Of a stretch of DNA of 64,000 bases, positions 13,101 to 44,398 are shown piece after piece. Each line of letters opens with the position of its first letter. Positions within the stretch are counted from its first letter, which is position 1. The notes under the pieces are model-generated. The model was not told where the DNA came from and searched no databases. It saw only the letters and a list, made by a program, of their open reading frames with translations. Source of the stretch: Eledone cirrhosa (lineage: Eukaryota); contig OZ024766.1 in the NCBI GenBank assembly GCA_964016885.1, forward strand, positions 8,184,001 through 8,248,000, in the 5' to 3' direction. The position numbers and the translations under genes were made by a program.

Positions 13101-13188
13101 CTGAAGACGATGATGTTGTTGAGGTGAGGGTGACCGCAATGGTCAGAAGTAGAAGTAGAACGAGGTAGATTGGTAGTGACAGCTTCAT
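7139..13188 (-). CDS. Spliced gene copy A: predicted secreted 299-aa protein (signal peptide, PAN/apple-like segment, Trp/Cys C-terminal domain). Exons 13188-12843, 10790-10612, 8897-8740, 8173-8010, 7191-7139
   Basis: All four introns are GT-AG with polypyrimidine tracts and compatible phases 1/0/2/1. Exon lengths 346+179+158+164+53 = 900 nt with no internal stop. N-terminus MKLSLPIYLVLLLLLTIAVTLTS, C-terminus GVGVADAMAIYIRLKPE*. AATAAA on the minus strand at 7062-7067. Confidence 0.88.
7245..7970. repeat. 44-bp minisatellite (~16 units) in intron 4, ending in a piggyBac-like terminus
   Basis: Unit gaacagaaagaggtgagagaattctggccggttacagccagttt; the array ends in tttaaatgctaaagggttaa (reverse complement TTAACCCTTT...). 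Confidence 0.9.
8190..8515 (-). mobile_element. Cluster of SINE pieces in intron 3 (also 29760-30075; a + strand copy at 52635-52823 in unit III)
   Basis: Same SINE family as 4331-4514 (cgggatttgaac B-box complement, ggcacaaggccagc tail). Confidence 0.75.
9410..10460 (+). mobile_element. RTE-clade LINE reverse-transcriptase fragment, degenerate (intron 2)
   Basis: ORF 9425-10240 has FVDLEKAFDRV, GVHQGSVL, CADD (catalytic YADD mutated), a Cys-rich insert WPCSVC...CSKCKLWVHKRC and FRYLGD; frameshift after 10230. Confidence 0.92.
10797..12454 (-). mobile_element. Internally deleted L1/Tx1-like LINE (5' end and ORF1 N-terminus joined to ORF2 C-terminus and 3' UTR)
   Basis: Asn/Thr-rich ORF1-like frame 12295-11516. 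From ~11560 another frame reads LTWQCYWGVLPVRDKLYRHG...ETLLRALVQCLRIADLWSYVEQLL (zf-RVT-like). The 3' end has AATAAA plus (ATT)n. Confidence 0.75.
12465..12830 (+). mobile_element. R4/Dong-like (RLE-type) LINE 3' fragment
   Basis: Translates YKDLEIEIGKIWKLRTKTIPVVVGALGMIP...EIQKIVLMGTGHILRKILSI*, followed by a 3' UTR and (TAA)n. Confidence 0.8.
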
Positions 13189-13384
13189 GTCGACCAACAC
13201 TACCACAACTGGGACTGGACAGTGGGAAGAAGGACGGTGTAATATCCTGGGCTACCCTATGAGGGCCGAGAGTGGGCAGTGAGAGGAGTGTGTTATAAGG
13301 ATGGTGAAGTGACCAAGACAGACTTGGAAAACATACAGATAAAAGGGAGAATAGAGAAGGATTAGAATAATAACAGGCTGGTCA

Positions 13385-13855
13385 CTCTGGCCACTGATGT
13401 CCACTGTTGTCCACTGCTGCCACCAATATCAACTGTGATCTGAAATGTCCACTGCTCCAAGCTAAAATCAATGTCCACTAAAGGCAGAACTAACCAATAT
13501 AGCCACCAACATCCACAAAAGCCAGAATTGACTACTATAGCCCCCAATGTTCACTACAGTCAGAACTGACCACTAAAGCGCGAACTGCCCACTACAGCCA
13601 GAACTGACCACTACAACTCAAGCTGCCCACTACAGCCAGGACTGACCTCAACAACCCGAACTGCCCACTACAGCCACCAATTTCCACTGCCGCTAAAACC
13701 GACCACTACAGCCAGGACTGCCCACTAAAGCCAGGACTAACCACTACAACCAGAACTAACCACTACAGCCACAAATGTTCACTAAATCAAGAACTAATCA
13801 CTAAAGCTAGAATTGACTACTACAACCAGGACTGTTCACCACAACTGACCACTGA
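13385..13855. repeat. Degenerate ~19-bp repeat (ccactacagccagaactga)n upstream of the secreted-gene ATG (also ~34950-35415 and ~57565-58035)
   Basis: Roughly 20 imperfect ccactac/ccactaa-cored units. Confidence 0.75.
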
Positions 13856-14383
13856 ATATAAACATCTCAGTTACTAACACATATATGTATAGAGAGAGAG
13901 ACACGCTTCACTGAACATGGAGTGCTGTTTGGTCAATGGAGGGTGTAGGTGGATGGTGTAGTGGTAATCAATGACACTTATTGAATACATATATACACAC
14001 ACTTATACATGCATACTTATACATACACAGACACACAGTATGTATGTATCTCTCTCTCTATATATATATAATGAAGGAGTTGTGGTAAGAAACCAGATGG
14101 ACCATAACGCACCAGAGTACTCAATACTTAGGGTAGTAGGAAAATGTTTGACCTCGACGGCAGAGCTCAAGCCATTTCGATGGCTATTTCTGGACTCCAG
14201 AAAGAAGAATGGATATAAAATGGTGATGATGATGATGTATTATACAACCAAAATACTTGAAAAGGTGTTTATTTATTGACAATTATTTCAATTATTCACA
14301 ATTTAATCCTAGATAATATCAATATTCCAATCAATAGATCTACATGTTATTAAGAGTATATATATATATATATATACATATGT

Positions 14384-14680
14384 ATCATCATCATCACTGT
14401 TTTATATCCATTCTTCCACGCTAGCATGGGTTAGAAGGGCTGTCCTGTTGTGAGCAGTGTCCGGTCAGCTGACCATGTCTTGCTCATACAGGAACTGATT
14501 CTGGCTTGATTTCTACAGCTGGATGCCCTTCCTAACACCAACCTCATTTACAGTGAGTGCCTGGGTGCTTCTTGTTGTGACACCCACACAACCACTTTAC
14601 AGTGGGGGCTGGGGGCTTTTTTGCCGTGGCACCTCCACGACCGCTTTGCAGTGGGAGGGTGTGCGGGGCATATTGTCTAT
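14384..14680 (-). mobile_element. RTE LINE 3' UTR fragment, truncated by a deletion in unit I
   Basis: Same sequence as 35948-36245 with a (GAT)n tail on the minus strand. Confidence 0.7.
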
Positions 14681-14831
14681 ATTACAGATCGAACCTGACT
14701 CTGCACTCGCAAGGTCTTCAGATATGTTTATCGTTTCCAAGGCATTTCTTCATACTCATGATCACCGAAGAAACCTATGTCATATATTAATAAATTGTGT
14801 TTTCATGCATCACTGATTCCTCGTTATCTAT

Positions 14832-15362
14832 AATAATTGTTTCTACTTTAGGCACAAGGCCAGCAATTACCCCAGTGTATTACTGGTACTTTATTTTATC
14901 AACCCTGTAATAATTGTTTCTACTTTTGGCACAAGGCCAGCAAATAGCCAGTACATTACTGGTACTTTATTTTATCAACCCTGTAATAATTGTTTCTACT
15001 TTTGGCACAAGGCCAGCAATTACCCCAGTGTATTACTGGTACTTTATTTTATCAACCCTGTAATCATTGTTTCTACTTTAGGCACAAGGCCAGCAAATAC
15101 CCCAGTACATTACTGGTACTTTATTTTATCAACCCTGTAATAATTATTTCTACTTTTGGCACAAGGCCAGCAATTACCCCAGTGTATTACTGGTACTTTA
15201 TTTTATCAACCCTGTAATAATTGTTTCTACTTTTGGCACAAGGCCAGCAAATACCCCAGTACATTACTGGTACTTTATTTTATCAACCCTGTAATAATTA
15301 TTTCTACTTTTGGCACAAGGCCAGCAATAACCCCAGTACATTACTTGTACTTTATTTTATCG
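14832..15362. repeat. 77-bp SINE-tail-derived satellite, ~7 units (also 36706-37158 and 59328-59857)
   Basis: Unit taataattgtttctacttttggcacaaggccagcaattaccccagtgtattactggtactttattttatcaaccctg is the reverse complement of the SINE 3' end at 16695-16763. Confidence 0.9.
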
Positions 15363-15642
15363 AGCCCCTACTCTGCTCTGCACGAGCATTGAGTGCTCAA
15401 ACGGCATACCACCTACGGACACATTGCAACCTTACAACAAATATATATTTATATATGTATATATATTATATACATATATATAATTGATAGGAAAATCTGC
15501 TTCGTATAATCGAGACGTATCCGACAACTGAAAGGTACATGTATGTACATGCAATATATTCACAATTATTATAATCAATGCCACTTATATGCCTGTTATT
15601 TACATCAACACGGACATACTCACAAACATCGATATATTGCAA

Positions 15643-15833
15643 TAACCTGGGGTCAATGACCCTCAACTCGTCAACAAGCTGTCAAGGAATTTGAGAGATG
15701 GTGTCGACGTGGATGTTTTCAAGAAACATCTCGACACTCTGTTATCCAGGATCCTGGATGAGCCCACATCAAGGTACGAAGGTAACCTAAGGGCAACAGC
15801 AACGAACTCCCTCTTACACCAATGGCCAGCCAA
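15643..15833 (+). mobile_element. CR1/L2-group LINE ORF2 C-terminal fragment (also 37439-37629; longer copy at 60680-60940)
   Basis: Translates LGVNDPQLVNKLSRNLRDGVDVDVFKKHLDTLLSRILDEPT...RATATNSLLHQ; clade assigned from remembered motifs. Confidence 0.6.
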
Positions 15834-15835
15834 TT

Positions 15836-16140
15836 GAGAGTACAAGACTTCCCCCTAGACAGGACATCAGTCCATCACAGGGTTAAAGTCTGTCTTAGTT
15901 TCATTGGTGTTAAGTGACTGAGAGTACAAGACTTCCCCCTGGACAGGACATCAGTCCATCACAGAGTTAAAGTCTGTCTTAGTATCATTGGTGTTAAGTG
16001 ACTGAGAGTACAAGACTTCCCCCTGGACAGGACACCAGTCCATCACAGGGTTAAAGTCTGTCTTAGTTTCATTGGTGTTAAGTGACTGAGAGTACAAGAC
16101 TTCCCCCTGGACAGGACACCAGCCCATCACAGGGTTAAGG
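15836..16140. repeat. 84-bp satellite, ~3.6 units, at the unit I/II junction
   Basis: Same unit as 3490-3840. Confidence 0.92.
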
Positions 16141-16580
16141 TCTTATATATATATATTTATACATATATGTATATATATATATATATGTATTTCTGGAAGT
16201 CCAGAAACAGCCGTCGAAATGGCTTGAGCTCTGCCGCCGGAGTCTTGACTCTTTTCCTATTACCCACTCTACTACCCAAAGTATTGAGTACTCTGGTGGG
16301 TTATGGTCCACCTGGTGCCTTACTACACTTCCTTCGTTATATATATATAAAATAAAAATATATAATATTTATTTATACAATGATATTAAATAAATGGAAA
16401 CTATATTTATAAAACCATATTTATTCTAATATATATATTTCAAGGGTACCAAAATTTTGACATAACCAAGGAGAATATACCCTAACGGTTCAAAGTATAT
16501 ATATGTATATATATATAGTAAAATAAAAATATATAATAATTATTTATACATAGTATATATTATATTATTTATTATATATA

Positions 16581-17005
16581 TGGATTGACAGTATCGGTAG
16601 AGGGTTTGACGCCATGCTTTCCAGCATAGTTACGTCCCTTTACGATCTGAGTTCAAATCCCGCCGAGGTTGACTTTGCCTTTCATCCTTACGGGGTCGAT
16701 AAAATAAAGTACCAGTAATGCACTGGGTAATTGCTGGCCTTGTGCCTAAAGTAGAAACAATTATATATATGTATATATATAAATAAATATATATTTTTTA
16801 TTTTACTTTATTTTTGTATATAATTGCTTCCTCTTTTGGCACAAGGCCAGAAAGTAGCCAGTGCATTACTGGTACTTTATTTTATCGACCCCGTAAGGAT
16901 GAAAGGCAAAGTTAACCTCGGCGGGATTTGAACTCAGAATGGCAAGGACCGTAACTCTATACGTCAAACATGGCATCCGACCCTCTACCGATACTGCCAA
17001 TCCAC
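16581..17005. mobile_element. Inverted tail-to-tail SINE pair: 16581-16763 (+) and 16822-17005 (-); also 38463-38885
   Basis: gagttcaaatcccgccgaggttgactttgcctttcatccttacggggtcgataaaataaagtaccag, with its reverse complement after a ~60-nt spacer. Confidence 0.85.
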
Positions 17006-17439
17006 ATATAATATATACAGGTTGGTCCGAAAGTCATGTCACCCCCTACCAAAAAGTAATGAGAAACAGTTTATGTTCCCATCGCAGTATCATCCACTTC
17101 GGAGGAGTGGTTTGCCGAATCTATCTTGCAGTGAAGTCATCTCACATATATAAACATATATCGTGTCACATATATATATATATATGTATTTATTATTATT
17201 ACTATATACATATATATATAATAATAATAATAAATAGAAAGACCAAAACCTAAAGAGGACTCGATAAAGTTTCAGATGACCCTGCTAAGAGTAAAAGCAG
17301 AAGTGCTTTATTTAAACTTTTAATTCGGACTACTAATATATATATATTTATATATATATATCATCTTCAATGTAGAGAAATGGCTTATATAGGACTAGAA
17401 ATGTTTCAAAAGGCAATCAGGCAGGGAGAAAGAGGCTAA

Positions 17440-17685
17440 CAAGACGGGAAATACGTATTACTGCGGCTAGAGAAAGAAAGCTAGCTGTTTTGTTGCTTTC
17501 CGACAAGATACAAATCTGTGGCTGAAGAATAAGAAGCTACAACAACGTTAATGGCGGAGAAGAGAGGAAAAAATTGATTTATAAAAAATATCTTTAAAAT
17601 TTCTAATTTAACAACAAAGAGATTATTTCTTTGGTTGTTTAATAAAATATAAAAAGAGAACAGATTGATTACATGTGGAGAGGGT
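17440..17685 (+). promoter_or_regulatory. Putative promoter and non-coding first exon of ZNF copy 2 (intron 17684-20555)
   Basis: Locally CpG-richer, with a YY1-like aatggcgg motif at ~17551 and donor AGG|gtaagt at 17684. Strong acceptor ttttgtttctctgttatttcag ends at 20555, 362 nt before the ZNF ATG. Confidence 0.5.
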
Positions 17686-18099
17686 AAGTTGAGAAAGATT
17701 TACTTGAAGTCTAAAATAATGTGTGTAAATAATAGAATTATGTGAACCTAACAGCGATACAGTAATTATATAGAGGTGAAAGTATTTAACAACTTTGGAC
17801 ATATTTCTTCACTTTTATATACAGGAAAATACTGGGGACATATTTATTTCATAAATACATTACAAATCGTTTGCGATTCTTTCACAATGAATATATAAAC
17901 AGAGCATATAAATAAATTTACAGTGGAATAACATAACAAATATGTTTTAAATATATACATAAATAACATTATAAATAGCTCCCGATTCTGTCAGAAGGAC
18001 GTATTCTTTTAATGTTACAATATTAAAGAAAATGTAAAGGAAGGGGTGAACAACGGAGCCAACACCAGGGCAAAAGACAGCAACGAGGAATACTGGGCA

Positions 18100-18330
18100 A
18101 CCTCTCTAATGATTTTTTAGGCAAGCCAGCACACTGGCAGCGTAACTTCAGGTGATGGCGAGGCTGATGCGCTGAAACAGCCAAGCACCCTCGCGAGGTT
18201 CGCCAGTTACCTCTATTAGGCGAGCCGCCAGTGAAGAGAGGAACCTCGCAGTCAGCGGCCCGACTCCCCCAAATGTCTCGAAAGCCACAGGCTGAAAAAT
18301 GTAGCTAAATACTTCTAGACTGAAATGTTG
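18100..18330 (-). mobile_element. CRE-like (RLE-type) non-LTR retrotransposon C-terminal fragment (also 40005-40230)
   Basis: FQPVAFETFGGVGPLTARFLSSLAARLIEVTGEPREGAWLFQRIS(L/P)AI..., a characteristic CRE-clade C-terminus. Confidence 0.75.
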
Positions 18331-18529
18331 ATGTCGTATTTTGGTAAATTTATAGGAAAAACACGCCTTCCCTCGATTTCAGTGGGGAAGTTAGTTTTTT
18401 GAGTTATCAATTAATGTAACCTCTTGGATGCGGGCAATCGAATTATTCACCCGAAAAAAAATTAGATGGATACTCTAAACATTAAAACTAAACCCTTAAT
18501 CTAACCCTTTAGCATTTAAACCAGGCATG

Positions 18530-20480
18530 ATATAATTAAGTAAGAAAGTTATTAATTAAATTTTAATTATTTTGATTTTTGTTAAATTTGTTTTAATTAT
18601 TATTTTAAATCCAAAACAGTTATTGTTAAATTTTAAGTATATTAAAGAAAGTATATTTTTTTAAATATCAAATAAGAAAGTTATTAATTAAAATTATTTA
18701 GTTTTATTTTTTTAAATACTTTTCATCTCTGTTTAATTTTTTTTTTTTTATAATTTTAAGAAAAGTAAATACGAAACAAATTATAATTTTTTTTCTTTTT
18801 GATTAAAATATTTGATTAAAATCTTTTTTGATTAAAATTTAAAAAAAAAACCTAAATTCTAATATTCCAAAGTATCTATAATACATCATAATAATGTTGT
18901 ATCCAATATAGAATATTGCCGAAGATGTTTTCTTGAATAGCATGGCACCACAGGAACTCCTGGAGGGGAGAGCTGTAAAGTGCCTCATCTGTTCTTGTCA
19001 TGGCACAGAATTAGACTGTGTAAAGCCCCCAGCTGCCTTCCACACGGTTTGTGTGGATTGTGGGGTTGTTAGGGTCCACAAGGTTGTAACATGGGTTACC
19101 AACTTGTTGTGGGAGGACATTGTATGACTGCTGGCCTTTGGTAGATTGTAGGGTTGTTAGGGTCCACAAGGTTGTAACAAGGGTTACCAACTACATGTTG
19201 TGGGAGGACTTTGTATGACTGCCAGCCTTCGGTGGATTGTGGGGTTGTTAGGGTCCACAAGGTTGTAACAAGGTTACCAAGTTGTTGTGGGAGGACATTG
19301 TATGACTGCCGGCCTTTGGTAGATTGTGGGGTTGTTAGGGTCCACAAGGGTTACCAACTTGTGGGAGGACATTGTATGACTGCCAGCCTTTGGTGGATTG
19401 TGGGGTCGTTAGGGTCCACAAGGTTGTAACAAGGGTTACCAACTACATGTTGTGGGAGGACATTGTATGACTGCCAGCCTTCGGTGGATTGTGGGGTTGT
19501 TAGGGTCCACAAGGTTGTAACAAGGGTTACCAACTTGTTGTGGGAGGACATTGTATGACTGCCGGCCTTTGGTAGATTGTGGGGTTGTTAGGGTCCACAA
19601 CGTTGTAACAAGGGTTACCAACTTGTTGTGGGAGGACATTGTATGACTGCCAGCCTTTGGTGGATTGTGGGGTTGTTAGGGTCCACAAGGTTGTAACAAG
19701 GGTTACCAACTTGTTGTGGGAGGACATTGTATGACTGCCAGCCTTTGGTGGATTGTGGGGTTGTTAGGGTCCACAAGGTTGTAACAAGGGTTACCAACTT
19801 GTTGTGGGAGGACTTTGTATGACTGCCAGCCTTCGGTGGATTGTGGGGTTGTTAGGGTCCACAAGGTTGTAACAAGGGTTACCAACTTGTTGTGGGAGGA
19901 CTTTGTATGACTGCCAGCCTTTGGTTACAATGCAATTACATGGACGAATGTACAGAGCAATGGTGGGTAAAAGGGTCGCTACATCTCGTTGTTCCACAGG
20001 TACCACAATTGTCACCTCACTCCAACATAACAAGAACGATAATCCACAAAAATCAACAACAAAATAATTTAAAAAAAAATTAAATAATTCAAAATTTAAT
20101 TAATAACTTTCTTACTTTTAAGAAAAATAATTTTTAAAAAATGTACTTTCCTTAAGATTATTTTTAAAAATAATTTAACAAGAATCAAAAAAAATTTAAA
20201 TAATTTAAAATTTAATTAATAACTTTCTTAGTAACATTTTTTAAAAAAATGTACTTTTCTGAAAATTATTTTAAAAAATAATTTAACAAAAAATATAAAT
20301 TAAATAATTAAAAATTTAACTAATAATAACTTTCTTAATTAATTACATTAAAAAAAATAATAATAATAATTTCAAATAAACATTAAATTAAATAATTTAA
20401 AATATAATTAAAATTTAATTAACAATAACTTTCTTATTTAATTACACTAAATAAAAAAAATAATTTAACTACAAGATGCC
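18530..20480. mobile_element. Foldback-like structure: AT-rich modular inverted arms around a ~1.2-kb core (also ~40428-42080)
   Basis: The left arm repeats aagaaagttattaattaaattttaattatttt; the right arm repeats its reverse complement aaataatt.aaaatttaattaataactttctt. Confidence 0.55.
19052..19924. repeat. 88-bp satellite, ~10 units
   Basis: Unit gtggattgtggggttgttagggtccacaaggttgtaacaagggttaccaacttgttgtgggaggacattgtatgactgccagcctttg. Confidence 0.92.
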
Positions 20481-20917: not shown

Positions 20918-22369
20918 ATGTCGAAGGAGATAGGGGTATCATTATATCACTGTGATGTCTGTGGTAAATCATTCTCTGGAGAAGATAGCCTCTCAACTCA
21001 TAAATGTACTCACACAGGAGAGAAATCATATCTTTGGGATGTCTGCAATAAATCATACTCTGAGGAAGATAGCCTCTTAACACACAAACGTATACATACA
21101 GGAAAGAGGCCATATCACTGTGGTATCTGTGGTAAGTCATTCTCACGGAGAGGAAACTTAACTACACACAAATATATACATAGAGGAGAGAAACCTCATC
21201 GCTGTGATATCTGTGGTAAGTCATTCTCACATGCAGGAACCTTGACTACACACAAACGTATACATACAGGAGAGAAGCCATATCACTGTGGTATCTGTGG
21301 TAAGTCATTCTCACATGCAGGAAACGTGACTACACACAAACGTATACATACAGTAGAGAAGCCATATCGCTGTGATATCTGTGGTAAGTCATTCTCACGT
21401 GCAGTAACCTTGACTACACACAAGCGTATACATACAGGAGAGAAGCCATATCATTGTGATATCTGTGGTAAGTCATTCTCACAGACAGGAAGCTTGACTA
21501 TACACAAACGTATGCATACAGGAGAGAAGCCATACCACTGTGATATCTGTGGTAAGTCATTCTCACAGGCAGGAAACGTGACTCCACATAAATATATACA
21601 TACAGGACAGAAACCTCATCACTGTGATATCTGTGGTAAGTCATTCTCGCAGACAGATCAGTTAACCCAGCACAAACGTATACATACAGGAGAGAAGCCA
21701 TATCAATGTGATATCTGTGGTAAGTCATTCTCACAGACATATCACTTAACACAGCACAAACGTATACATACAGGAGAGAAGCCATATCACTGTGATATCT
21801 GTAGTAAGTCATTCTCACAGACATCTCATTTAACAATACACAAACGTATACATACAGGAGAGAAACCTCATCGCTGTAATATCTGTGGTAAGTCGTTCTC
21901 GCAGACAGATCAGTTAACACAGCACAAACGTATACATACAGGAGAGAAGCCATATCACTGTGATATCTGTGGTAAGTCATTCTCACAGAGAGGAACCTTG
22001 ACTACACACAAATATATACATAGAGGAGAGAAACCTCATCGCTGTGATATCTGTGGTAAGTCATTCTCACAGGCAGTTCATTTAACAAAACACAAATATA
22101 TTCATACAGGAGAGAAGCCATACCAATGTGATATCTGTGGTAAGTCATTCTCACAGGCAGGAACGTTAACTAAGCACAAATATATACATACAGGAGAGAA
22201 ACCTCATCGCTGTGATATCTGTGGTAAGTCCTTCTCGCAGACAGTTCATTTAACAAAACACAAATATATTCATACAGGAGAGAAGCCATACCAATGTGAT
22301 ATCTGTGGTAAGTCATTCTCACAGATAGGAAACTTGACTACACACAAATGTATACATACAGGAAATTGA
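20918..22369 (+). CDS. C2H2 zinc-finger array protein, copy 2: 483 aa, 17 fingers (finger 2 has C->W), no effector domain
   Basis: Intact ORF: 11-aa leader followed by 17 x 28-aa fingers. Confidence 0.95.
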   Translation: MSKEIGVSLYHCDVCGKSFSGEDSLSTHKCTHTGEKSYLWDVCNKSYSEEDSLLTHKRIHTGKRPYHCGICGKSFSRRGNLTTHKYIHRGEKPHRCDICGKSFSHAGTLTTHKRIHTGEKPYHCGICGKSFSHAGNVTTHKRIHTVEKPYRCDICGKSFSRAVTLTTHKRIHTGEKPYHCDICGKSFSQTGSLTIHKRMHTGEKPYHCDICGKSFSQAGNVTPHKYIHTGQKPHHCDICGKSFSQTDQLTQHKRIHTGEKPYQCDICGKSFSQTYHLTQHKRIHTGEKPYHCDICSKSFSQTSHLTIHKRIHTGEKPHRCNICGKSFSQTDQLTQHKRIHTGEKPYHCDICGKSFSQRGTLTTHKYIHRGEKPHRCDICGKSFSQAVHLTKHKYIHTGEKPYQCDICGKSFSQAGTLTKHKYIHTGEKPHRCDICGKSFSQTVHLTKHKYIHTGEKPYQCDICGKSFSQIGNLTTHKCIHTGN

Positions 22370-23301
22370 GTGACCATGTAGACGTTTACTCAGTGATATG
22401 TAATTGATACCCTTTGATTAACCATCGATTGAATATGATTCAAATTGTTTTTCTGACTATATTAAATTATGTCCGCGTCTTTTAACATATGACACCTGTT
22501 TTATGAAAGAGCAGGAAATATTGTCAAAGACAGCACGTACCTGCTTTCTTTACTATAACTTTAATTAATCTAATTATATCTTGTGTAGCAATTATCTCAT
22601 GTTAAGGTGAAAGTTAATATTTTCTAGATAACATAGAGTGAGCTACATGTTTCAGGGTAGGTGTTTCATCTCCTACATGATTAAATATTTCATTTCATGA
22701 GAAACTACGCTACATCGTGAATTGGTTGTTCCACATTTTACTGAACAGTGAGAAATAAGTTTAAATCACCAACATCTGAACAATTAGCTTTCTTGGTCTT
22801 TCTTGAGTTTACACTTGGAATTGAAATATAAAGTACATATTATTTGTATTGTTAATACAGTAGATATTGAGTTCTTTTCTACACCACAATTTTATTTCCT
22901 TGACATCAGTCTTACACTGTCATATCTATTCTTACTTTACAGTTCTGTCAACTAAGAGTTCCATTACAATCTGTATTAAAAGAATGACTATTTCACCAGA
23001 ACATCTGCTGCTAGTCATTTACGGACACCCTATATCTTTTAGACCACACATCATTAATTATACATAGCCACTTTTCTTAACATAGAAATAGAAGTCTTTT
23101 TCTCTACAATAATACATATGTACCACTTGGAGAAGACTCACTTTGCTACAAGCATTCTATTGGTATGTAGAAAATATATCTACATTGCATATTTTCCACA
23201 CGTGTAAACATAGTCCTATGATATCTAAGACAAGAAACTGAACTGTAATATATTATAAACACAGATATTTCTCAACTTTTAAGAATTCTTCAAAAATTAC
23301 T

Positions 23302-24450
<1,149 letters not shown>

Positions 24451-26437: not shown

Positions 26438-26476
<39 letters not shown>

Positions 26477-27420: not shown

Positions 27421-27457
<37 letters not shown>

Positions 27458-28796: not shown

Positions 28797-31700
28797 TTAT
28801 TCTGGTTTGAGACGTATGTATATGGCCATAGCATCGGCTACACCAAGTCCTGAAATTAACAATGACCACAACAACATCATTAATAACAATACCAATAGTT
28901 ACAGTTTGAACAAAAAGAGGTGAGAGCATTTTGACCAGTTACAGCCAGTTTGAACATGAAGAGGTGAGAGAATTCTGGCCGGTTATGGCCAGTTTAAACA
29001 GAAAGAGGTGAGAGAATTCTGGTCAGTTACAGCCAGTTTGAACAGAAAGAGGTGAGAGAATTCTGACCAGTTACAGCCGGTTTAAACAGAAAGAGGGGAG
29101 AGAATTCTGACCAGTTACAGCCAGTTTGGACATGAAGAGGTGAGAGAATTCTGGCCGGTTACAGCCAGTTTAAACAGAAAGAGGTGAGAGAATTCTGGCC
29201 GGTTACAGTCAGTTTGAACAGAAAGAGGTGAGAGAATTCTGGCCGGTTACAGCCGGTTCGAACAGAAAGAGGTGAGAGAATTCTGACCAGTTACAGCCAG
29301 TTTTAACAGAAAGAGGTGAGAGAATTCTGGCCGGTTACAACCAGTTTGAACAGAAAGAGGTGAGAGAATTCTGGCCGGTTACAGCCAGTTTGAACAGAAA
29401 GAGGTGAGAGAATTCTGACCAGTTACAGCCAGTTTGGACATGAAGAGGTGAGAGAATTCTGGCCGGTTACAGCCAGTTTAAATAGAAAGAGGCGAGAGAA
29501 TTATGGCCGGTTATGGCCGGTTTAAATGCTAAAGGGTTAAGCAGAGAATTGTTCCTTTTACTTTACTATGGTGTCTTACCTTCGCTCCATGTTACTTTGG
29601 TAGATTTATTGGAATAAAAGATCATCGGATAGAATTGAGAGAACTCCCATGTACACCAAATGTATTTTTCGTTAATAAATAACCAGCCACGATCTTTTGG
29701 ACAACCGTTGTGAATGTTGGAAATATAGAAGAGCCGCAATTTGCTGTAAATAATAAAGGTAATTGTTTCTGATTTAGGCACAAGGCCAGCAATTTTGGGG
29801 CAGGGGGAAGTCGATATATCGACTCCAGTGTATTTATAATAAATGTTTCTACTGTAGGCACTAGGCTAGCCATTACTCCCAGTACATTACTGGTACTTTA
29901 TTTTATCGACCCCGTAAGGATGAAAGGCAAAGTTAACCTCGGCGGGATTTGAACCCATACTGTAAAGGGCCGTAACTCTGTGCTGCAGAGCATGGCGTCT
30001 GACCCTCTACCGATACTGCCAATCCACCACCATAATAATAATGATTCCTAGTATAGGCACAAGGCCAGCAATTAGGGGTGAGTGCTGACATTTGAAAAGT
30101 TTAAAGAAGTGAATCTTTAAATAAGCAATAAAATTATTTATATTTAATCAAGAGTTACGAAATTCAGTAGATAAATTATGTAATATTCATTCATTATTTA
30201 TTCAAAGTAATCCAACTTATTTTACAAACGGGATAAAAAAATATAAAACGAACAAAGTCCCACACTCCTCACTTTATCATATAATAGATTGAGACTTACC
30301 TATACCCAATTATAGAGAAAACGTTGAATGTTCCAAAGTCCGTCCATGGGGAACTCATTACATTTTCTTTACTAAACCAGTTAGTTATTGTGGTTTTCTT
30401 GCCATTAAATACCATTGTGACAACAACTGTTTGATTCTTGGACAGAACCAGTTTTACCTGAAAAAGAATATGCTATGTATATATATATATATATATAAAT
30501 TAAACAATAATCAAAGCTGTGTTCAAATCATTTTATTGCTGACAATCGTTTCTTCCAAACTTTCGTTTGGAATCATCAGAGCACTAGCAAAGATTGGACA
30601 TATAATTAACTTCCTATTCATCTGAACAATCATATAGATATATGGATATTAATGTTGTCATCAATAGTTTCGTATTTACAGAGTGGAATGGATGCGACAT
30701 AGATTACAAGAGAATTGTGTAATAATTAAAAAGGCCCAGAGAGGAATGCATGTGACAGAGATTACAAAGGAATAGTATAATAATTAAAGAGGCATTAAGG
30801 TAGAAAGTTACTCGTAAAACGAGGACACTAGCAGTACATATGCAAGCGTAGAGAGAGTGCAAATGCATTAGGCATATACAGGAAGGAAACAAGCAATGGT
30901 ATTAGCCATATATAATTACTGCATGGTGAAGGTAACACATAAAACAACATAGGTTTACAAGCATATCAATCAGGCAAAGGTAAACGTACCATGGATGCTC
31001 ATTTCTTTGTACGGCAATTACAGCAGGAGTACCTAGCTAACAGTAAACCCCTCTATTTAGCTTTTGTTGACCTGGAGAAGGCCTTTGACAGAGTCCTCCA
31101 CTCTATTATCTGGTGGGCTCTTAGAAAACTAGGAGTGGAAGAATGGCTTGTGAAAGCTATACAAGCCATATATAGAGGAACAGTCAGCAAAGTTAGAAAT
31201 AACAAAGAATATAGTGAAGAGTTTAGCGTAATAGTAGGGGTTCACCAGGGCTCCGTACTTAACCCCCTCCTGTTTATACAGGATATAACAGAGGGATTTA
31301 AGACTGGCTGCCCATGGGAACTTCTATGTGCAGATGATCTAACTCTCATAGCTGAATCCATGGCTGAACTAGAGAAGAAGTTCCAAACATGGAAGCCTGG
31401 CCTAGAATCAAAAGGCCTTAAAGTGAACTTGTCCGAGACTAAGGTTCCAGTATGTAGAAAGGAGAATAGGGCACAGGTACCCTCTGGGAAATGGCCATGC
31501 TCAGTGTGTAAGAAAGGAGTAGGCAGAATCTCCATTTTATGTTCCAAATGCAAACTATGGGTGCATAAAAGATGCAGTAGGATCAGAGGTAAACTATCTA
31601 AGAATGTAGATTTTATATGTGGCCGATACTCAGGTGCAGTAAGTAGCAAGGATCCACTGGGTTACATCTCCTTCAACTGCCCAGATGGTTTTATAGAAAT

Positions 31701-34700
31701 AGTAGACACCTTCCGTTACCTGGGTGACAAAATCAGCAGTGGAGGAGGGTGCTCTGAAAGTACAGTAGCCAGAGTTAGAACAGGATGGAAAGGTTCAGAG
31801 AGTTAATACCGCTGTTGGCCACAAGGGGTTTTTCTCTAAAAAAAAAAGGCAGATTGTATGATGCTTGTATACGAACGGCGATATTACATGGTAGTGAGAC
31901 CTGGGCACTGCGTAGATTAGAAAGAACTAAAGCTTGCATGCTCCAATGAATGTGTAATAGTAATGTGCGGGAAAGGCGAAGTATAAACAAACTAAGAAGG
32001 AGACTAAGCATAAGAAGTATCAAATGTGTTCTGGGCAGTTCCCATTAGTACTATCAAATGTTGTGTTTGTATGTGCGTGACTGTACATACCAGAATTTAT
32101 ATTTATGTGTGTGTGTGTGTGTGTGTAAACATATATACACACTCACAAATGTGTATGTAGCTCTACAGAACCTACCTCATCAATTGGAAGCTCATTCCAA
32201 ATATCCAGTATTGGATGTCGGAAAAAATTAGGACAGAAATTTCCAACACATTTCTCCACCTTCCAAGTCGACGCATTTCCTATATTAAGGAAGGAATTAT
32301 AGACTAACGAGTTTGCTCCCATTGATAAGGCATACACCTTAATCCATTTATCTCCTGAAATAATAATAATAATAATGGTTTCTTTATTGGCCACAAGGGC
32401 TAACATGAAGAAAAACATTAGAGATGGCACAGGACAATACAAAGTGGGTTTTGGTTGTGTAAACAGGTTATAACAAAATCGGGCTAGAAATCCAAAAAAT
32501 TCAAACAAAAATTCCCCCAAAAGGGGGAAACCTCCAAGGGATCACCCATGGAGAAAACCACACAAAATAGACCACAGCCACCCTGACCACCAGAGCAAGC
32601 GCCCTCTCTCACTTTTCCCACTCCTCAGTCTACAGGCGCATAGTCAGAGTGGGCCCGTTCACTCGGACCAGACTCGCCACTTTCACCCACCTTTCAACAA
32701 ACTTACTAGAAGACAGTACTTACTTGCCTCTCCACTCTGATTTTCTTCTTTAAGTGAAACTTGAAAAATTTAATCAGGGATTTGTCGGAGAGGAGAGTGT
32801 CCATCTTCAACCTTGTCCACCACACAATCTCTTTTGCCATGGCCACCAGGCAGATGAAAACTGCCTGCCCTTCCTCTTCTTTAAAGGAGGATGGCGGGGC
32901 TATCTGCAAAATGGACTCAGTCGATAACCGGATCCGTCCTACACGTGACAGCAGCTGTTCGACATAGCTCCACAAGTCAGCAATCCTCAGGCACTGAACG
33001 AGTGCGCGCAGGAGGGTTTCGTCGCCCTGCGCGCTTCTCGGACTGGCTCGACTGACAGCAACCTCCGTGCCTGTAGAGCTTATCCCGAACCGGCAACGCT
33101 CCCCAGTAGCACTGCCAGGTCAGGGAAATGTACGTCTACTGTGGCGTACTTTTTGCCTCGGATGATGTGGGTTTTGTGCCCAGACGCACCCCAGGGCCTT
33201 TTGGATTTGAGTCTCCGTAGCTCTCTCCAGCCGATGTGACAATTTGCTTACGGTGCGGTAAGTCACCGTGCGCAGCTGCTGGTCTTTGAAGAAATCGGGT
33301 GGAGGTTTCAGGGAAACTCTATTGACGTTTCTTGTCACCATGGCTCTTGCGACTGCCATCTCCTCCTCCGTGACTAGCACTGTCTCTATATTTCGAGCCA
33401 CACCTGTGAAAGAAGTGGCCCCTTTTTCAGCGGCACCACTATTACTGCTGCTACTCATCTGGTTGTTGGTGCTACTGCTACAAACGGTGTTGTTGGTGTT
33501 GTTGCTGTAGTTCATTGTGTTTTCGGTGCAATTTGTATTGTTGTTGGTGGTGTTGTCGTTGTTTATTTTCTTGTTAGTGGTGTTAATATCGTTGTTGCAT
33601 TTTTCTATTGTCTGTATTTTGGTTGACGCTGTTATTGTTGTAGTTGGTGTGGTAATTTTTGTTAAATTAGTGTTCTCAGTGTTGTTGTCTTTGTTCACGT
33701 TGTTTGTGGTGGTGTTTGTTGTATGAATTTCTGTGACCCTCCTCTCAACTTTTACGCCGTTGTCATACGACAGCAGACATATTGCTGGGGGGCGTGGCTC
33801 AGCCATGTTTTTTTTTTTTTCATTTTCAAAAGTGAAATGTTCAAAAATATTGTTCATATATTTGGGCCAAAAGGCCCAAATATTATACTTTCCCCTTCAC
33901 AGGGCAATGTCCAAGGGCTTATACCCCTTACACAACAAGAAAAATTTAACAACAAATAATTATAACAGCTAAATAAAGTGACTTACTGAGAGCAAGCAAA
34001 AAAGATTTCCAAACAGATAATAATAGTATAAAGACCTGGAGATAGAGATTGGAAAGATCTGGAAGTTGAGGACTAAAACAATACCACTGGTTGTAGGCGC
34101 TCTAGGAATGATACCTCAGGGGTCTAATGATTACTTATCCCAAATCCCAGGAAACCCGCGTATAGCAGAAATACAAAAGATAGTACTAATGGGAACTGGC
34201 CATATACTAAGGAAGATTCTGTCAATATAAGTACATCACAAGTCTAAACACCTAAAGATACATGTATGTGTGTATGTGTTCCTTCTTGAACATGGTGGAC
34301 CTTGTTGTCTCTTGAGGTCACTGGTTGTGACTTGGTGATAACTCGTATGAACATAAAGCAAGATAAATGAAATAATAATAATATTAATAATAAAGGTAAC
34401 TTACTTCTATAATAAGCCATCTCGTTCATGTTCTGTCCAGTGGTGACTGTCAGTATATTCTTTGGTGAATATATCTTACAAAGCTGTTTGACTTTGTCAT
34501 AACTGAAGTATTCTGTTTCTTCGGTTAAAGCAGTGACCGCACACTTGAGAAGAGTGTTGCATGGAATGAAGTGGTCAGTTGTGGTCTTCAAAAGGTAGCT
34601 GTAGGTATAGCCACTAGCCAGATGTTCATATTGGGCTTCTCTGTAGTTCGGCCTCTCTGACCCTGAAGACGATGATGTTGTTGAGGTGAGGGTGACCGCA

Positions 34701-34750
34701 ATGGTCAGAAGTAGAAGTGGAGCGAGGTAGATTGGTAGTGACAGCTTCAT
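28797..34750 (-). CDS. Spliced secreted-protein gene copy B, 299 aa. Exons 34750-34405, 32354-32176, 30457-30300, 29743-29580, 28849-28797
   Basis: Same exon lengths, GT-AG sites and phases as copy A, with an open frame. Exon 4 = KLRLFYISNIHNGCPKDRGWLFINEKYIWCTWEFSQFYPMIFYSNKSTKVTWSE. Confidence 0.88.
28905..29540. repeat. 44-bp minisatellite, ~14 units
   Basis: Same unit and terminus as 7245-7970. Confidence 0.9.
30976..32025 (+). mobile_element. RTE LINE RT fragment, copy 2
   Basis: ORF 30991-31806 is near-identical to 9425-10240. Confidence 0.92.
32361..34016 (-). mobile_element. Internally deleted L1/Tx1-like element, copy 2
   Basis: Same as 10797-12454, with an extra frameshift near 33170. 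Confidence 0.75.
34027..34392 (+). mobile_element. R4/Dong-like LINE 3' fragment, copy 2
   Basis: Same as 12465-12830. Confidence 0.8.
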
Positions 34751-36455: not shown

Positions 36456-36463
36456 TATATATT

Positions 36464-37630: not shown

Positions 37631-38020
37631 TGAGAGTACAAGACTTCCCCCTAGACAGGACATCAGTCCATCACAGGGTTAAAGTCTGTCTTAGTTTCAT
37701 TGGTGTTAAGTGACTGAGAGTACAAGACTTCCCCCTGGACAGGACACCAGTCCATCACAGGGTTAAAGTCTGTCTTAGTTTCATTGGTGTTAAGTGACTG
37801 AGAGTACAAGACTTCCCCCTGGACAGGACATCAGTCCATCACAGAGTTAAAGTCTGTCTTAGTATCATTGGTGTTAAGTGACTGAGAGTACAAGACTTCC
37901 CCCTGGACAGGACACCAGTCCATCACAGGGTTAAAGTCTGTCTTAGTTTCATTGGTGTTAAGTGACTGAGAGTACAAGACTTCCCCCTGGACAGGACACC
38001 AGCCCATCACAGGGTTAAGG
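37631..38020. repeat. 84-bp satellite, ~4.6 units, at the unit II/III junction
   Basis: Same unit as 3490-3840. Confidence 0.92.
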
Positions 38021-39321
38021 TCTTATATATATATATTTATACATATATGTATATATATATATATATGTATTTCTGGAAGTCCAGAAACAGCCGTCGAAAT
38101 GGCTTGAGCTCTGCCGCCGGAGTCTTGACTCTTTTCCTATTACCCACTCTACTACCCAAAGTATTGAGTACTCTGGTGGGTTATGGTCCACCTGGTGCCT
38201 TACTACACTTCCTTCGTTATATATATATAAAATAAAACTATATAATATTTATTTATCCAATGATATTAAATAAATGGAAACTATATTTATAAAACCATAT
38301 TTATTCTAATATATATATTTCAAGGGTACCAAAATTTTGACATAACCAAGGAGAATATACCTTAACGGTTCAAAGTATATATATGTATATATATATATAG
38401 TAAAATAAAAATATATAATAATTATTTATACATAGTATATATTATATTATTTATTATATATATGGATTGACAGTATCGGTAGAGGGTTTGACGCCATGCT
38501 TTCCAGCATAGTTACGTCCCTTTACGATCTGAGTTCAAATCCCGCCGAGGTTGACTTTGCCTTTCATCCTTACGGGGTCGATAAAATAAAGTACCAGTAA
38601 TGCACTGGGTAATTGCTGGCCTTGTGCCTAAAGTAGAAACAATTATATATATGTATATATATAAATAAATATATATTTTTTATTTTACTTTATTTTTGTA
38701 TATAATTGCTTCCTCTTTTGGCACAAGGCCAGAAAGTAGCCAGTGCATTACTGGTACTTTATTTTATCGACCCCGTAAGGATGAAAGGCAAAGTTAACCT
38801 CGGCGGGATTTGAACTCAGAATGGCAACGACCGTAACTCTATATGTCAAACATGGCATCCGACCCTCTACCGATACTGCCAATCCACATATAATATATAC
38901 AGGTTGGTCCGAAAGTCATGTCACCCCCTACCAAAAAGTAATGAGAAACAGTTTATGTTCCCATCGCAGTATCATCCACTTCGGAGGAGTGGTTTGCCGA
39001 ATCTATCTTGCAGTGAAGTCATCTCACATATATAAACATATATCGTGTCACATATATATATATATATGTATTTATTATTATTACTATATACATATATATA
39101 TAATAATAATAATAAATAGAAAGACCAAAACCTAAAGAGGACTCGATAAAGTTTCAGATGACCCTGCTAAGAGTAAAAGCAGAAGTGCTTTATTTAAACT
39201 TTTAATTCGGACTACTAATATATATATATTTATATATATATATCATCTTCAATGTAGAGAAATGGCTTCTATAGGACTAGAAATGTTTCAAAAGGCAATC
39301 AGGCAGGGAGAAAGAGGCTAA

Positions 39322-39567
39322 CAAGACGGGAAATACGTATTACTGCGGCTAGAGAAAGAAAGCTAGCTGTTTTGTTGCTTTCCGACAAGATACGAATCTG
39401 TGGCTGAAGAATAAGAAGCTACAACAACGTTAATGGCGGAGAAGAGAGGAAAAAATTGATTTTAAAAAAATATCTTTAAAATTTCTAATTTAACAACAAA
39501 GAGATTATTTCTTTGGTTGTTTAATAAAATATAAAAAGAGATCAGATTGATTACATGTGGAGAGGGT
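39322..39567 (+). promoter_or_regulatory. Putative promoter and non-coding first exon of ZNF copy 3 (intron 39566-42164)
   Basis: Copy of 17440-17685; donor at 39566 and acceptor ending at 42164. Confidence 0.5.
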
Positions 39568-41071
39568 AAGTTGAGAAAGATTTACTTGAAGTCTAAAATA
39601 ATGTGTGTAAATAATAGAATTATGTGAACCTAACAGCGATACAGTAATTATATAGAGGTGAAAGTATTTAACAACTTTGGACATATTTCTTCATTTTTAT
39701 ATACAGGAAAATACTGGGGACATATTTATTTCATAAATACATTACAAATCGTTTGCGATTCTTTCACAATGAATATATAAACAGAGCATATAAATAAATT
39801 TACAGTGGAATAACATAACAAATATGTTTTAAATATATACATAAATAACATAAATGCTTAGACAACATTATAAATAGCTCCCGATTCTGTCAGAAGGACG
39901 TATTCTTTTAATGTTACAATATTAAAGAAAATGTAAAGGAAGGGGTGAACAACGGAGCCAACACCAGGGCAAAAGACAGCAACGAGGAGTACTGAGCAAC
40001 CTCTCTAATGTTTTTTTAGGCAAGCCAGCACACTGGCAGTGTAACTTCGGGTGATGGCGGGGCTGATGCGCTGAAACAGCCAAGCACCCTCGCGAGGTTC
40101 GCCAGTTACCTCTATTAGGCGAGCCGCCAGTGAAGAGAGGAACCTCGCAGTCAGCGGCCCGACTCCCCCAAATGTCTCGAAAGCCACAGGCTGAAAAATG
40201 TAGCTAAATACTTCTAGACTGAAATGTTGATGTATTTTTGGTAAATTTATAGGAAAAAGACGTCTTCCCTGGATTTTAGTGGGGAAGTTAGTTTTTTGAG
40301 TTATCAATTAATGTAACATCTTGGATGCGGGCAATCGAATTATTCCCCCGAAAAAAAAATAGACGGAAACCCTAAACTTTAACCCTAAACATTAATCTAA
40401 CCCTTTAGCATTTAAACCAGGCATGATATAATTAAGTAAGAAAGTTATTAATTAAATTTTAATTTTTTTGATTTTTGTTAAATTTGTTTTAATTATTGTT
40501 AAATTTTAAGTATATTAAAGAAAGTATATTTTTTTAAATATCAAATAAGAAAGTTATTAATTAAATTTTAATTATTTTGATTTTTGTTAAATTTGTTTTA
40601 ATTATTATTTTAAATCCAAAACAGTTATTGTTAAATTTTAAGTATATTAAAGAAAGTATATTTTTTTAAATATCAAATAAGAAAGTTATTAATTAAAATT
40701 ATTTAGTTTTATTTTTTTAAATACTTTTCATCTCTGTTTAATTTTTTTTTTTTTATAATTTTAAGAAAAGTAAATACGAAACAAATTATAATTTTTTTTC
40801 TTTTTGATTAAAATTTTTGATTAAAATATTTGATTAAAATCTTTTTTGATTAAAATAGAAAAAAAAAAAACGTAAATTCTAATATTCCAAAGTATCTATA
40901 ATACATCATAATAATGTTGTATCCAATATAGAATATTGCCGAAGATGTTTTCTTGAATAGCATGGCACCACAGGAACTCCTGGAGGGGAGAGCTGAAAAG
41001 TGCTTCATTTGTTCCTGTCATGGCACAGAATTAGACTTTGTAAAGCCCCCAGCTGCCTTCCACACGGTTTG

Positions 41072-41519
41072 TGTGGATTGTGGGGTTGTTAGGGTCCACA
41101 AGGTTGTAACAAGGGTTTCCAACTTGTTGTGGGAGGACATTGTATGACTGCTGGCCTTTGGTAGATTGTGGGGTTGTTAGGGTCCACAAGGTTGTAACAA
41201 GGGTTACCAACTACATGTTGTGGGAGGACTTTGTATGACTGCCAGCCTTCGGTGGATTGTGGGGTTGTTAGGGTCCACAAGGTTGTAACAAGGGTTACCT
41301 ACTTGTTGTGGGAGGACATTGTATGACTGCCGGCCTTTGGTAGATTGTGGGGTTGTTAGGGTCCACAAGGTTGTAACAAGGGTTACCAACTTGTTGTGGG
41401 AGGACATTGTATGACTGCCAGCCTTCGGTGGATTGTGGGGTTGTTAGGGTCCACAAGGTTGTAACGGGGGTTTCCAACTACATGTTGTGGGAGGACATTG
41501 TATGACTGCCAGCCTTTGG
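41072..41519. repeat. 88-bp satellite, ~5 units
   Basis: Same unit as 19052-19924. Confidence 0.92.
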
Positions 41520-42526
41520 TTACAATGCAATTACATGGACGAATGTACAGAGCAATGGTGGGTAAAAGGGTCGCTACATCTCGTTGTTCCACAGGTACCA
41601 CAATTGTCACCTCACTCCAACATAACAAGAACGATAATCCACAAAAATCAACAACAAAACAATTTTTAAAAAAATTAAATAATTCAAAATTTAATTAATA
41701 ACTTTCTTACTTTTAAGAAAAATAATTTTTTGAAAATGTACTTTTCTTAAGATTATTTTTAAAAATAATTTAACAAGAATCAAAAAAAATTTAAATAATT
41801 TAAAATTTAATTAATAACTTTCTTAGTAACATTTAAAAAAATAATAATTTAAAAAAAATGTACTTTTCTGAAAGTTATTTTTAAAAATAATTTAACAAAA
41901 AATATTAATTAAATAATTAAAAATTTAACTAATAATAACTTTCTTAATTAATTACATTAAAAAAAATAATAATAATAATTTCAAATAAACATTAAATTAA
42001 ATAATTTAAAATATAATTAAAATTTAATTAACAATAACTTTCTTATTTAATTACACTAAATAAAAAAAATAATTTAACTACAAGATGCCCATAACATTAA
42101 TCCTGTAAAATACCATTTTAATATCCTCTCCTCTATATCTTATTTTGTTTCTCTGTTATTTCAGAATATCACCTGACATTGACAGAAGAGAAATTTTAAA
42201 TTGAGATACATCATCAATATCATCTTTAAAAAGACTAACACAAGATTTTACATAAATCTTATAAAACATTTGATGAATTACGGCAAAATATTTCTTCTGA
42301 ATTGAGGTTTGTAAATAAATTTCTCTTCTTCACACTCTGGAAAGTGTACGAGAAGATTCTGCATTCTTATTAAACTTGAATTAATTTACAAAGGAGCTTG
42401 CACCATTTTCAGTTGTCAACAAATATCACAGTTGATGGAAATATTTGTTGGGAACAAAACCAAGAAAAATATCTTTATTTTGTACTGAGAAAAGAAAAAT
42501 AAAGATTTATATTTTCACCTGAAGAG

Positions 42527-44398
42527 ATGTCGAAGGAGATAGGGGAATCATTATATCACTGTGATGTCTGCAATAAATCATTCTCTGGAGAAGAAAGCCT
42601 CTCAACTCATAAATGTACTCACACAGGAGAGAAATCGTATCTCTGTGATGTCTGTGGTAAATCATTCTCTGAGGAAGAAAGCCTCTTAACACACAAATGT
42701 ATACATACAGGAAAGAGGCCATATCACTGTGGTATCTGTGGTAAGTCATTCTCACAGATAGGAAACTTAACTACACACAAATATATACACACAGGAGAGA
42801 AACCTCTTAGCTGTGATATCTGTGGTAAGTCATTCTCAGAGACAGGACACTTAACTACACACAAATATAAGCACACAGGAGAGCAGCCATATCAGTGTGG
42901 TATCTGTGGAAAGTCATTCTCACAGGCAGGTACCTTAAATAAACACAAATATATACATACAGGCGTGAAGCCGTATCGCTGTGGTATCTGTGGTAAGTCA
43001 TTCTCACAGGCAGGAAACTTGACTACACACAAATATGTACACACAGGAGAGAAGCCATATCGCTGTGATATCTGTGGTAAGTCATTCTCACATGCAGTAA
43101 CCTTGACTACACACAAACGTATACATACAGGAGAGAAGCCACATCACTGTGGTATCTGTGGTAAGTCATTCTCACGTGCAGGAACCTTGACTACACACAA
43201 ATATGTACACACAGGAGAGAAGCCTCATCAATGTGGTATCTGTGGTAAGTCATTCTCACAGGCAGGAATCTTGACTACACACAAATATATACATACAGGA
43301 GAGAAGCCATATCGCTGTGATATCTGTGGTAAGTCATTCTCACAAGCAGGAACCTTGACTACACACAAATATATACATACAGGAGAGAAACCATATCAGT
43401 GTGATATCTGTGGTAAGTCATTCTCTCATGCAGCAAACTTGACTACACACAAATATATACACACAGGAGAGAAGCCATATCGCTGTGATATCTGTGGTAA
43501 ATCATTCTCACAAGCAGGAACGTTAACTAAACACAAATATATACATACAGGAGAGAAATCTCAACACTGTGACATCTGTGGTAAGTCATTCTCGCGAACA
43601 TATCACTTAACGCAGCACAAACGTATACATACAGGAGAGAAGCCATATTGCTGTGATATCTGTGGTAAATCATTCTCACATGCAGTATCCTTGACTACAC
43701 ACAAACGTATACATACACAAGAGAAGCCATATCAGTGTGGTATCTGTGGTAAGTCATTCTCACAGGCAGGAAACTTGACTACACACAAATATATACACAC
43801 AGGAGAGAAGCCATATCAGTGTGGTATCTGTGGTAAGTCATTCTCACATGCAGGTACCTTGACTACACACAAATATGTACACACAGGAGAGAAACCTCAT
43901 CAATGTGGTATCTGTGGTAAGTCATTCTCAGAGACAGGACACTTAACTAAGCACAAGCGTATACATACAGGAGAGAAGCCATATCACTGCGATATCTGTG
44001 GTAAGTCATTCTCACAGAGAGGAAACTTAACAACACACAAATATGTACACAGAGGAGAGAAACCTCATCATTGTGATATCTGTGGTAAGTCATACTCACG
44101 GGCAGTTGATTTAACAACGCACAAATATATTCATACAGGAGAGAAGCCTTATCAATGTGATATCTGTGGTAAGTCCTTCTCACATGCAGGAACCTTGACT
44201 ACACACAAATATATACATACACAAGAGAAGCCATATCACTGTGATATCTGTGGTAAGTCATTCTCACAGAGAGGAAACTTAACAACACACAAATATGTAC
44301 ACAGAGGAGAGAAACCTCATCATTGTGATATCTGTGGTAAGTCATTCTCACAGACAGGAAACTTGACGTCACACAAACGTATACACACAGGAAATTGA
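42527..44398 (+). CDS. C2H2 zinc-finger array protein, copy 3: 623 aa, 22 fingers
   Basis: Intact ORF with nearly the same leader and the same HTGN* end as copy 2. Confidence 0.95.

Follow-up and report, generated by a model that had tools for sequence, protein, structure and literature searches.

The window analysed here, a stretch of 64,000 nucleotides (C27:8184001-8248000) from the genome of the octopod Eledone cirrhosa, contains the final three units of a cluster of C2H2 zinc-finger (ZNF) genes, and in each of these units a ZNF gene (ZNFa) and a second, frameshifted one (ZNFb) are accompanied by a gene that encodes a secreted protein. Most of what distinguishes the three secreted copies (A, B and C) lies in codons 220-284, which likely reflects diversifying selection on a predicted binding surface, and their head-to-head position relative to a ZNF likely came about incidentally, through the duplication junction. 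The cassette as such most probably arose by co-duplication of the secreted gene and the ZNFs, and the best reading of the data is that of a recognition-type gene family under diversifying selection that was co-duplicated inside ZNF-rich DNA.

All three secreted copies have an intact reading frame that is distributed over five exons, with GT-AG introns, and that starts on the minus strand at an ATG at 13188, 34750 and 57368, respectively; the first two lie exactly where an earlier, sequence-only reading of the window had put them. The copies, and the exon that distinguishes them, are:

7139..13188, minus strand: secreted gene copy A; exons 13188-12843, 10790-10612, 8897-8740, 8173-8010 and 7191-7139; 299 amino acids (aa)
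8010..8173, minus strand: hypervariable exon 4 of copy A, codons 229-282
28797..34750, minus strand: secreted gene copy B; exons 34750-34405, 32354-32176, 30457-30300, 29743-29580 and 28849-28797; 299 aa
51089..57368, minus strand: secreted gene copy C; exons 57368-57023, 54970-54792, 53054-52900, 52477-52314 and 51141-51089; 298 aa

The length of the copy C product holds if the in-frame GTGAGG is used as donor, which remains where the donor of exon 3 was lost in a 30-bp deletion. The joins between exons 3, 4 and 5 were seen in one spliced 293-base contig of run X4, which matches exon 4 exactly and whose loose ends correspond to the last part of exon 3 and the first part of exon 5; because this contig is spliced, we take run X4 to be RNA-derived. 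Just upstream of the copy A ATG (13189-13235), run X4 shows three substitutions and a 10-base gap that match none of the copies A-C nor a further paralog on the same contig (D), and sample S2 therefore probably carries another allele. A 168-aa open reading frame (ORF) that also starts at 13188 was rejected as a protein: the final 50 codons belong to an intronic repeat that has more than 140 dispersed matches among the 150 that were scored.

The three units can be aligned with about 99% identity across most of their 22 kb. Exon 4 was nevertheless distinct in every copy, as the sequence-only reading had it: of its 164 nucleotides (nt), 14 (A-B), 32 (A-C) and 30 (B-C) differ, i.e. 9-20%, nearly all of these differences altering an amino acid, versus 1-5% in the flanking introns, and exons 1, 2 and 5 show 0-5 nt differences each. 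The complete variable coding stretch (codons 220-284) comprises the end of exon 3, exon 4 and the first codon of exon 5. The nonsynonymous differences per site in exon 4 were 12/131, 27/131 and 26/133 for A-B, A-C and B-C, respectively, compared to 6/664, 14/284 and 12/275 differences in the alignable flanking introns (Fisher p ~2e-6 for each pair, leaving out the 44-bp satellite and, for the pairs with C, also the rearranged part of intron 3), so that the amino-acid-changing differences amount to 4-10 times the flanking-intron substitutions. Codon model M2a was preferred to M1a (likelihood ratio statistic 36, p 1.5e-8), with 5.5% of the sites at omega ~37, in our own GY94 implementation applied to 297 codons (227-228 dropped) of the three sequences. 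Seven codons that span three exons (221, 227, 230, 238, 240, 268 and 284) differ in all three copies, and the 25 variable sites of exon 4 occupy family columns of higher entropy than the 29 fixed ones (3.05 versus 2.16 bits, p 0.002). The overall pattern is one of a local ratio of nonsynonymous to synonymous rates (dN/dS) above 1 on a conserved scaffold, within the small-sample limits of three sequences. A fourth exon-4 variant, B-like and mosaic, occurs in runs X4 and X1; read by hand, it differs from B at codons 254, 255, 257, 259, 279 and, in X4, 284, all nonsynonymous; three of these changes are shared with copy C and one with A, and the remaining two are new. A preference of the variable sites for predicted loops was not seen in the structure model described below (8 of the 25 in strands versus 21 of the 54 positions, hand count).

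We consider it unlikely that exon 4 diverged without selection, through relaxed constraint or through gene conversion that was limited to the exon and came from unseen donors. The mosaic X4 variant and the proportion of synonymous differences (pS), which in exon 4 is raised as well for A-C and B-C, would agree with such a course, and so would paralog D, whose exon 2 is identical to that of copy A and whose exon 4 is only 43% identical in protein. However, no closer donor was present among the 21 genomic exon-4 matches (the nearest one beyond the copies reaches 60% identity), the single-base changes between A and B are 12 nonsynonymous to 1 synonymous, and recurrent independent changes affect the same codons, of which one lies in exon 5 and some in exon 3, with near-identical introns between them. 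Paralog D (C27:8751589-8769728) is itself chimeric: exons 1 and 2 have 96.5% and 100% protein identity to copy A, exon 3 has 62% and exon 4 the 43% mentioned, there is an 8-residue insertion with two extra cysteines, and the introns are mostly unrelated. This exon pattern together with the unrelated introns suggests exon-limited conversion over 0.5 Mb.

The protein encoded by copy A consists of a hydrophobic N-terminus, a PAN domain and a domain without a name. A total of 75 proteins (P0001-P0075) match the family profile; nearly all derive from Octopus or Argonauta and are uncharacterized, and no title or abstract opening in the literature searched describes the family. Within each of the named Octopus species most members reside on contigs of one size (hand counts: 16 on 15.1 Mb in O. 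sinensis, 11 on 18.6 Mb in O. bimaculoides and 20 on 29.2 Mb in O. vulgaris), unlike in the E. cirrhosa genome, where the family is scattered across 10 contigs. The structure was modelled on the full-length homolog P0001, which is 50-76% identical to exons 2-4 of copy A; the model from 114 sequences (mean predicted local distance difference test score, pLDDT, 87.8) replaced an earlier, poor one from 12 sequences (pLDDT 51). In this model the N-terminal domain has the PAN/apple fold (Z 10.3 with the HGF N domain, root-mean-square deviation 2.9 over 82 residues), and PAN_3 matches were found in 9 of the 87 family rows (E up to 0.1, best 7e-4). For the C-terminal domain the profile scans of the family rows returned no Pfam family, with neither Fibrinogen_C nor COLFI among the matches of the 87 rows, and the family profiles A2 and A4 gave no sequence match in the PDB. 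The structural matches of this domain, obtained with the full-length P0001 model, were weak: TLDc at Z 4.6-5.4 and fibrinogen-like domains at Z 3.7-4.5 (e.g. H-ficolin 3.9, intelectin 4.5). We did not adopt the label fibrinogen-like for this domain and leave it unassigned.

The relatives of the C-terminal domain form 1092 clusters at E up to 0.001. Among the 37 longer homologs scanned, 26 carry a Pfam match at E up to 1e-5, and in 24 of these the unnamed domain is joined to extracellular modules (such as C-type lectin, F5/8C, TSP1, SRCR, Sushi, EGF, PAN, ZP); the other two, one with YEATS only and one with VinK only, were discounted. It is because of this extracellular domain company and the selection signal that we infer a role in recognition. 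No toxin family appeared among the Pfam or structure matches of the secreted protein, and nothing that we saw favours the toxin-antidote type of element that had been proposed.

In the layout of the units, ZNFa and ZNFb are followed by a convergent secreted gene (ZNFa -> ZNFb -> <- secreted gene, complete three times). The other features of the window are:

2..850, plus strand: 3' part of ZNFa0, a poly-C2H2 ORF that starts 835 bp before the window; 19 strict-pattern fingers
1723..2686, plus strand: ZNFb0, second ZNF subfamily, broken frame; 145-aa ORF, fingers resume in another frame
3488..4960, no strand: 84-bp satellite and ZNF-upstream-like block, direct repeat of 15835-17440
9377..10240, plus strand: reverse-transcriptase fragment of a retroelement without long terminal repeats (non-LTR), in intron 2 of the secreted gene in all three units; Pfam RVT_1, E 5e-13
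11142..12334, minus strand: repeated fragment in intron 1 in all three units, high repeat depth and no Pfam match, which we take to be LINE-like (long interspersed nuclear element)
15835..16143, no strand: 84-bp satellite at the tandem junction, where the DNA upstream of copy A meets that upstream of ZNFa1
17440..17683, plus strand: putative first, non-coding exon of ZNFa1; a GTAAGT donor follows
20918..22369, plus strand: ZNFa1 coding exon; 17 Pfam zf-C2H2 stretches, 16 strict-pattern fingers
23242..24310, plus strand: ZNFb1, broken frame
37631..38023, no strand: 84-bp satellite at the second tandem junction
39322..44398, plus strand: ZNFa2; putative first exon from 39322, coding 42527-44398, 22 fingers
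45019..45696, plus strand: ZNFb2, broken frame
60950..62526, no strand: terminal 84-bp satellite of 18.8 copies at the array end; followed by 100 kb without a ZNF array

The sequence-only reading had every unit head-to-head, with an 84-bp satellite between the divergent genes. The satellite is indeed there, at 15835-16143 and 37631-38023, and the arrangement holds for copies A and B, across a duplication junction at that satellite; it does not hold for copy C, which is followed by the 18.8-copy satellite and then by 100 kb without a ZNF array. The two tandem junctions share one structure: the left flank of the satellites at 15835 and 37631 matches the upstream DNA of the terminal copy C and the right flank matches ZNF upstream sequence. 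In the 4.25-kb spacer between the copy A ATG and the putative first exon of ZNFa1, where a shared bidirectional promoter would have to lie, at least 53% (2258 of 4251 bp) is dispersed repeat, and the upstream block that the copies share with the ZNF-less paralog D ends at ~14030, about 3.4 kb from that first exon. Among the close copies of the ZNF first exon within the cluster, 2 of 8 face a secreted gene and 6 of 8 have no secreted partner. On its other side, copy A is flanked by the direct repeat of the same satellite and ZNF-upstream DNA (3488-4960 versus 15835-17440); the block at 3488-4960 ends where a ZNF first exon would begin and points toward the 3' end of copy A. Beyond the array end, a (TA)n tract of more than 640 bp (63357-64000) runs off the window.

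Both the identity of the units (~99%) and the absence of the copy A exon 4 among the contigs of runs X1, X3 and X4 (contigs do drop variants) could be taken to mean that part of the array is a false duplication, in which divergent alleles were assembled in tandem. This is very unlikely in our view, with the structure common to both junctions, with finger arrays that share no run longer than one finger code, and with sample S1 holding B-type, C-type and the fourth variant, from which it follows that at least two loci exist.

The ZNFa genes have many tandem C2H2 fingers in one coding exon and are clustered, like the poly-C2H2 genes of coleoids. Each has its own finger array, in agreement with the sequence-only reading (19, 16 and 22 strict-pattern fingers, with differing recognition helices), and positions -1, 2, 3 and 6 account for 39% of the amino-acid diversity (48 fingers, the first two per gene dropped). 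The arrays turn over as 84-bp coding repeats, and they do so alike in ZNFs with and without a secreted partner. Six further ZNFa-type ORFs lie 12-60 kb upstream, none with a secreted gene; the proportion of nonsynonymous differences (pN) at the contact residues was 0.347 for the partnered genes (47 fingers, three genes) versus 0.325 for the unpartnered ones (63 fingers, five of the six upstream genes, the most divergent one being excluded). Since the unpartnered ZNFs diversify alike, it is the cluster as a whole that is characterised by distinct finger arrays. The block at 17440-17690, proposed earlier as a ZNF first exon, was conserved in 40/40 scored matches (of 556 candidates), all on contig C27 and all extending to the 3' end at GTAAGT, which fits a first exon of ZNFa1 as far as can be told from sequence. 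For ZNFb, 150 of 457 candidate matches were scored, of which 83 fall on C27 (hand count), so that with the 40/40 first-exon matches this contig is ZNF-rich. In all three units ZNFb is frame-broken, with finger repeats of 81 bp, i.e. one codon short. The two fast-changing parts that had been singled out are real, in that the likely specificity regions are the fastest-changing parts of both genes, but they are not alone: the ZNFb repeats, the rearranged intron 3 of copy C and insertions upstream of the copies vary too.

To see how the two families are linked elsewhere in the genome, all 15 loci that correspond to the 21 exon-4 matches (36 candidates) were examined, with 30-100 kb read per locus. 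Finger arrays were near three of them, namely the window array, C25:17.12-17.16 Mb and C9:53.84 Mb, and absent from the stretches read at the other 12, including those of the four closest paralogs (D, C21, C24 and C2b). The label ZNF-adjacent required 4 changes on a 16-gene tree, and 114 of 500 shuffles were as low, i.e. there was no clustering. In the three units available, the most similar secreted pair (A, B) has the least similar pair of ZNF partners. Evenly spaced 10-kb samples held a finger array in 2 of 20 cases on C25 and in 3 of 20 on C27, and adjacency on these contigs is therefore not rare. An old duplicon common to the window and C25 or C9 was considered and dropped: there is no collinear spacer and what they share is limited to exons, ZNF-family sequence and dispersed repeats. 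On C9 (53832642-53848234) one secreted paralog occurs with two ZNFb-type genes and an 83% copy of the ZNFa intron with an 88-bp satellite. Two paralogs have a long intron between exons 3 and 4 (~30 kb at C25:11050743-11085269 and ~22 kb at C28:53925388-53948000), and the paralog at C3:320161171 has a stop in exon 1.

Several points weigh against the combination of diversifying selection and co-duplication. The codon test is based on three sequences and our own implementation, and ignores conversion, which can inflate such tests, as well as multi-base changes; within exon 4 alone the excess of pN over pS is non-significant (Fisher p 0.08-0.25). Copy C changes residues that are conserved in the family (231, 233, 239, 241 and 245) and has lost a donor, which could be decay. 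The variable domain lacks a fold assignment (best structural Z 5.4). The junction join lies ~98 bp before the terminal satellite begins, and therefore there was no clean in-register exchange. Finally, secreted paralogs and ZNFb-type genes lie intermingled in small islands at the C25 and C9 loci (C25:17.08-17.16 Mb, C9:53.83-53.85 Mb): these islands contain the sole C25 match and 2 of the 4 C9 matches among the 150 scored ZNFb matches, and two C25 secreted genes are head-to-head with a ZNF at ~6 and ~12 kb.

These islands, which have no further ZNF array in the next 100 kb and suggest that both families travelled together before, are the best evidence for the linked specificity module that the sequence-only reading had put forward, in which each ZNF would control, or be co-selected with, the neighbouring secreted variant. 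Also in its favour, both parts vary at likely specificity residues, and of the 15 family genes that were evaluable, 4 face a ZNF head-to-head at a distance of up to ~13 kb (evaluable meaning that exon 1 was located and at least ~7 kb upstream was read; six genes were excluded, five without exon 1 and one with less than 2 kb). We nevertheless find the module quite unlikely, as the subfamily and the orientation of the ZNF partner vary between loci, the window unit has no spacer that is collinear with C25 or C9, copy C and paralog D (the latter with the upstream block common to ~14030) do without a ZNF, and unpartnered ZNFs diversify equally. The divergent arrangement on which it was built sits on a tandem junction, few of the first exons are partnered and most loci have no ZNF array in the DNA read. 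The alternative given at the time, one gene as a passenger of the duplication, fits better. Linkage confined to this one array, named then as grounds for abandoning the module, was not what we found, with C25 and C9 mixing the families as well; a finger array near the secreted gene elsewhere in the genome, suggested then as a check, occurs at those two loci and not in the stretches read at 12 of the 15. There is likewise only a slim chance that octopods keep a selected secreted recognition family tied to ZNFs, on three or more chromosomes, for the reason that the choice of the expressed variant lies with the ZNFs; if true, selection would have favoured a regulator-effector module that serves self/non-self or pathogen recognition.

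In the reading of co-duplication with diversifying selection, the array is the end of the ZNF cluster, with junction flanks that match copy C upstream DNA on the left and ZNF upstream DNA on the right, and unequal exchange at or beside the 84-bp satellites that flank the last unit would have made the tandem copies. Exon 4 changes often at the same codons in different copies, mostly outside the conserved core of the family, and conversion or unequal crossover would shuffle the variants between copies while keeping the rest ~99% alike. The protein may then act in recognition outside the cell, its ligand most likely being microbial or derived from a parasite. The finger arrays turn over irrespective of a secreted partner.

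The situation resembles that on zebrafish chromosome 4, where, in the passages concerned, NLR-B30.2 genes are interspersed with multi-C2H2 genes, and the authors suggest that local duplications copied both families and that conversion differs by domain (bioRxiv 10.1101/022061): in both cases a diversifying recognition family is irregularly mixed with tandem C2H2 genes. Unlike the NLRs described there, which are cytoplasmic and present in hundreds of copies, the family found here encodes secreted PAN proteins, has 21 exon-4 matches and varies in one exon. Clustered tandem poly-finger genes, as seen in the window, have been published as coleoid C2H2-ZNF expansions (PMC9068888, PMC9795677, PMC12513265), and C2H2 genes were placed near other expanded families, PCDH and GPCR (PMC9795677); the ZNF passages of these three papers do not mention the secreted family or a paired unit. 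As in the account of fish FiNZ-ZNFs (PMC10547256), in which octopus ZNFs were among those analysed for predicted binding to transposable elements, variation is concentrated at the DNA-contact residues, and unlike in those genes as presented there, no accessory domain was seen in the ZNFa coding exon. The protein is secreted like the fibrinogen-related ficolin, intelectin and Angptl, and its variable cysteine-pair segment just before the last strand may be compared, by analogy, to the ligand-binding P subdomain in the relevant part of PMC5928061; it departs from the fibrinogen-related proteins in having no Pfam or PDB sequence match and structural scores (Z 3.7-4.5) below those for TLDc (4.6-5.4). 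Sea urchin Sp185/333 (SpTransformer; PMC5103432) is an unrelated protein whose clusters are associated with short tandem repeats, unlike the 84-bp satellite here.

The pairing of ZNF and secreted gene is in itself probably ordinary. The lead is the secreted family, which combines the lack of a Pfam family and of a clear solved fold with sharp local selection and mosaic alleles, and which offers a concrete candidate for a cephalopod recognition molecule that has diversified; the residues for testing are already marked.

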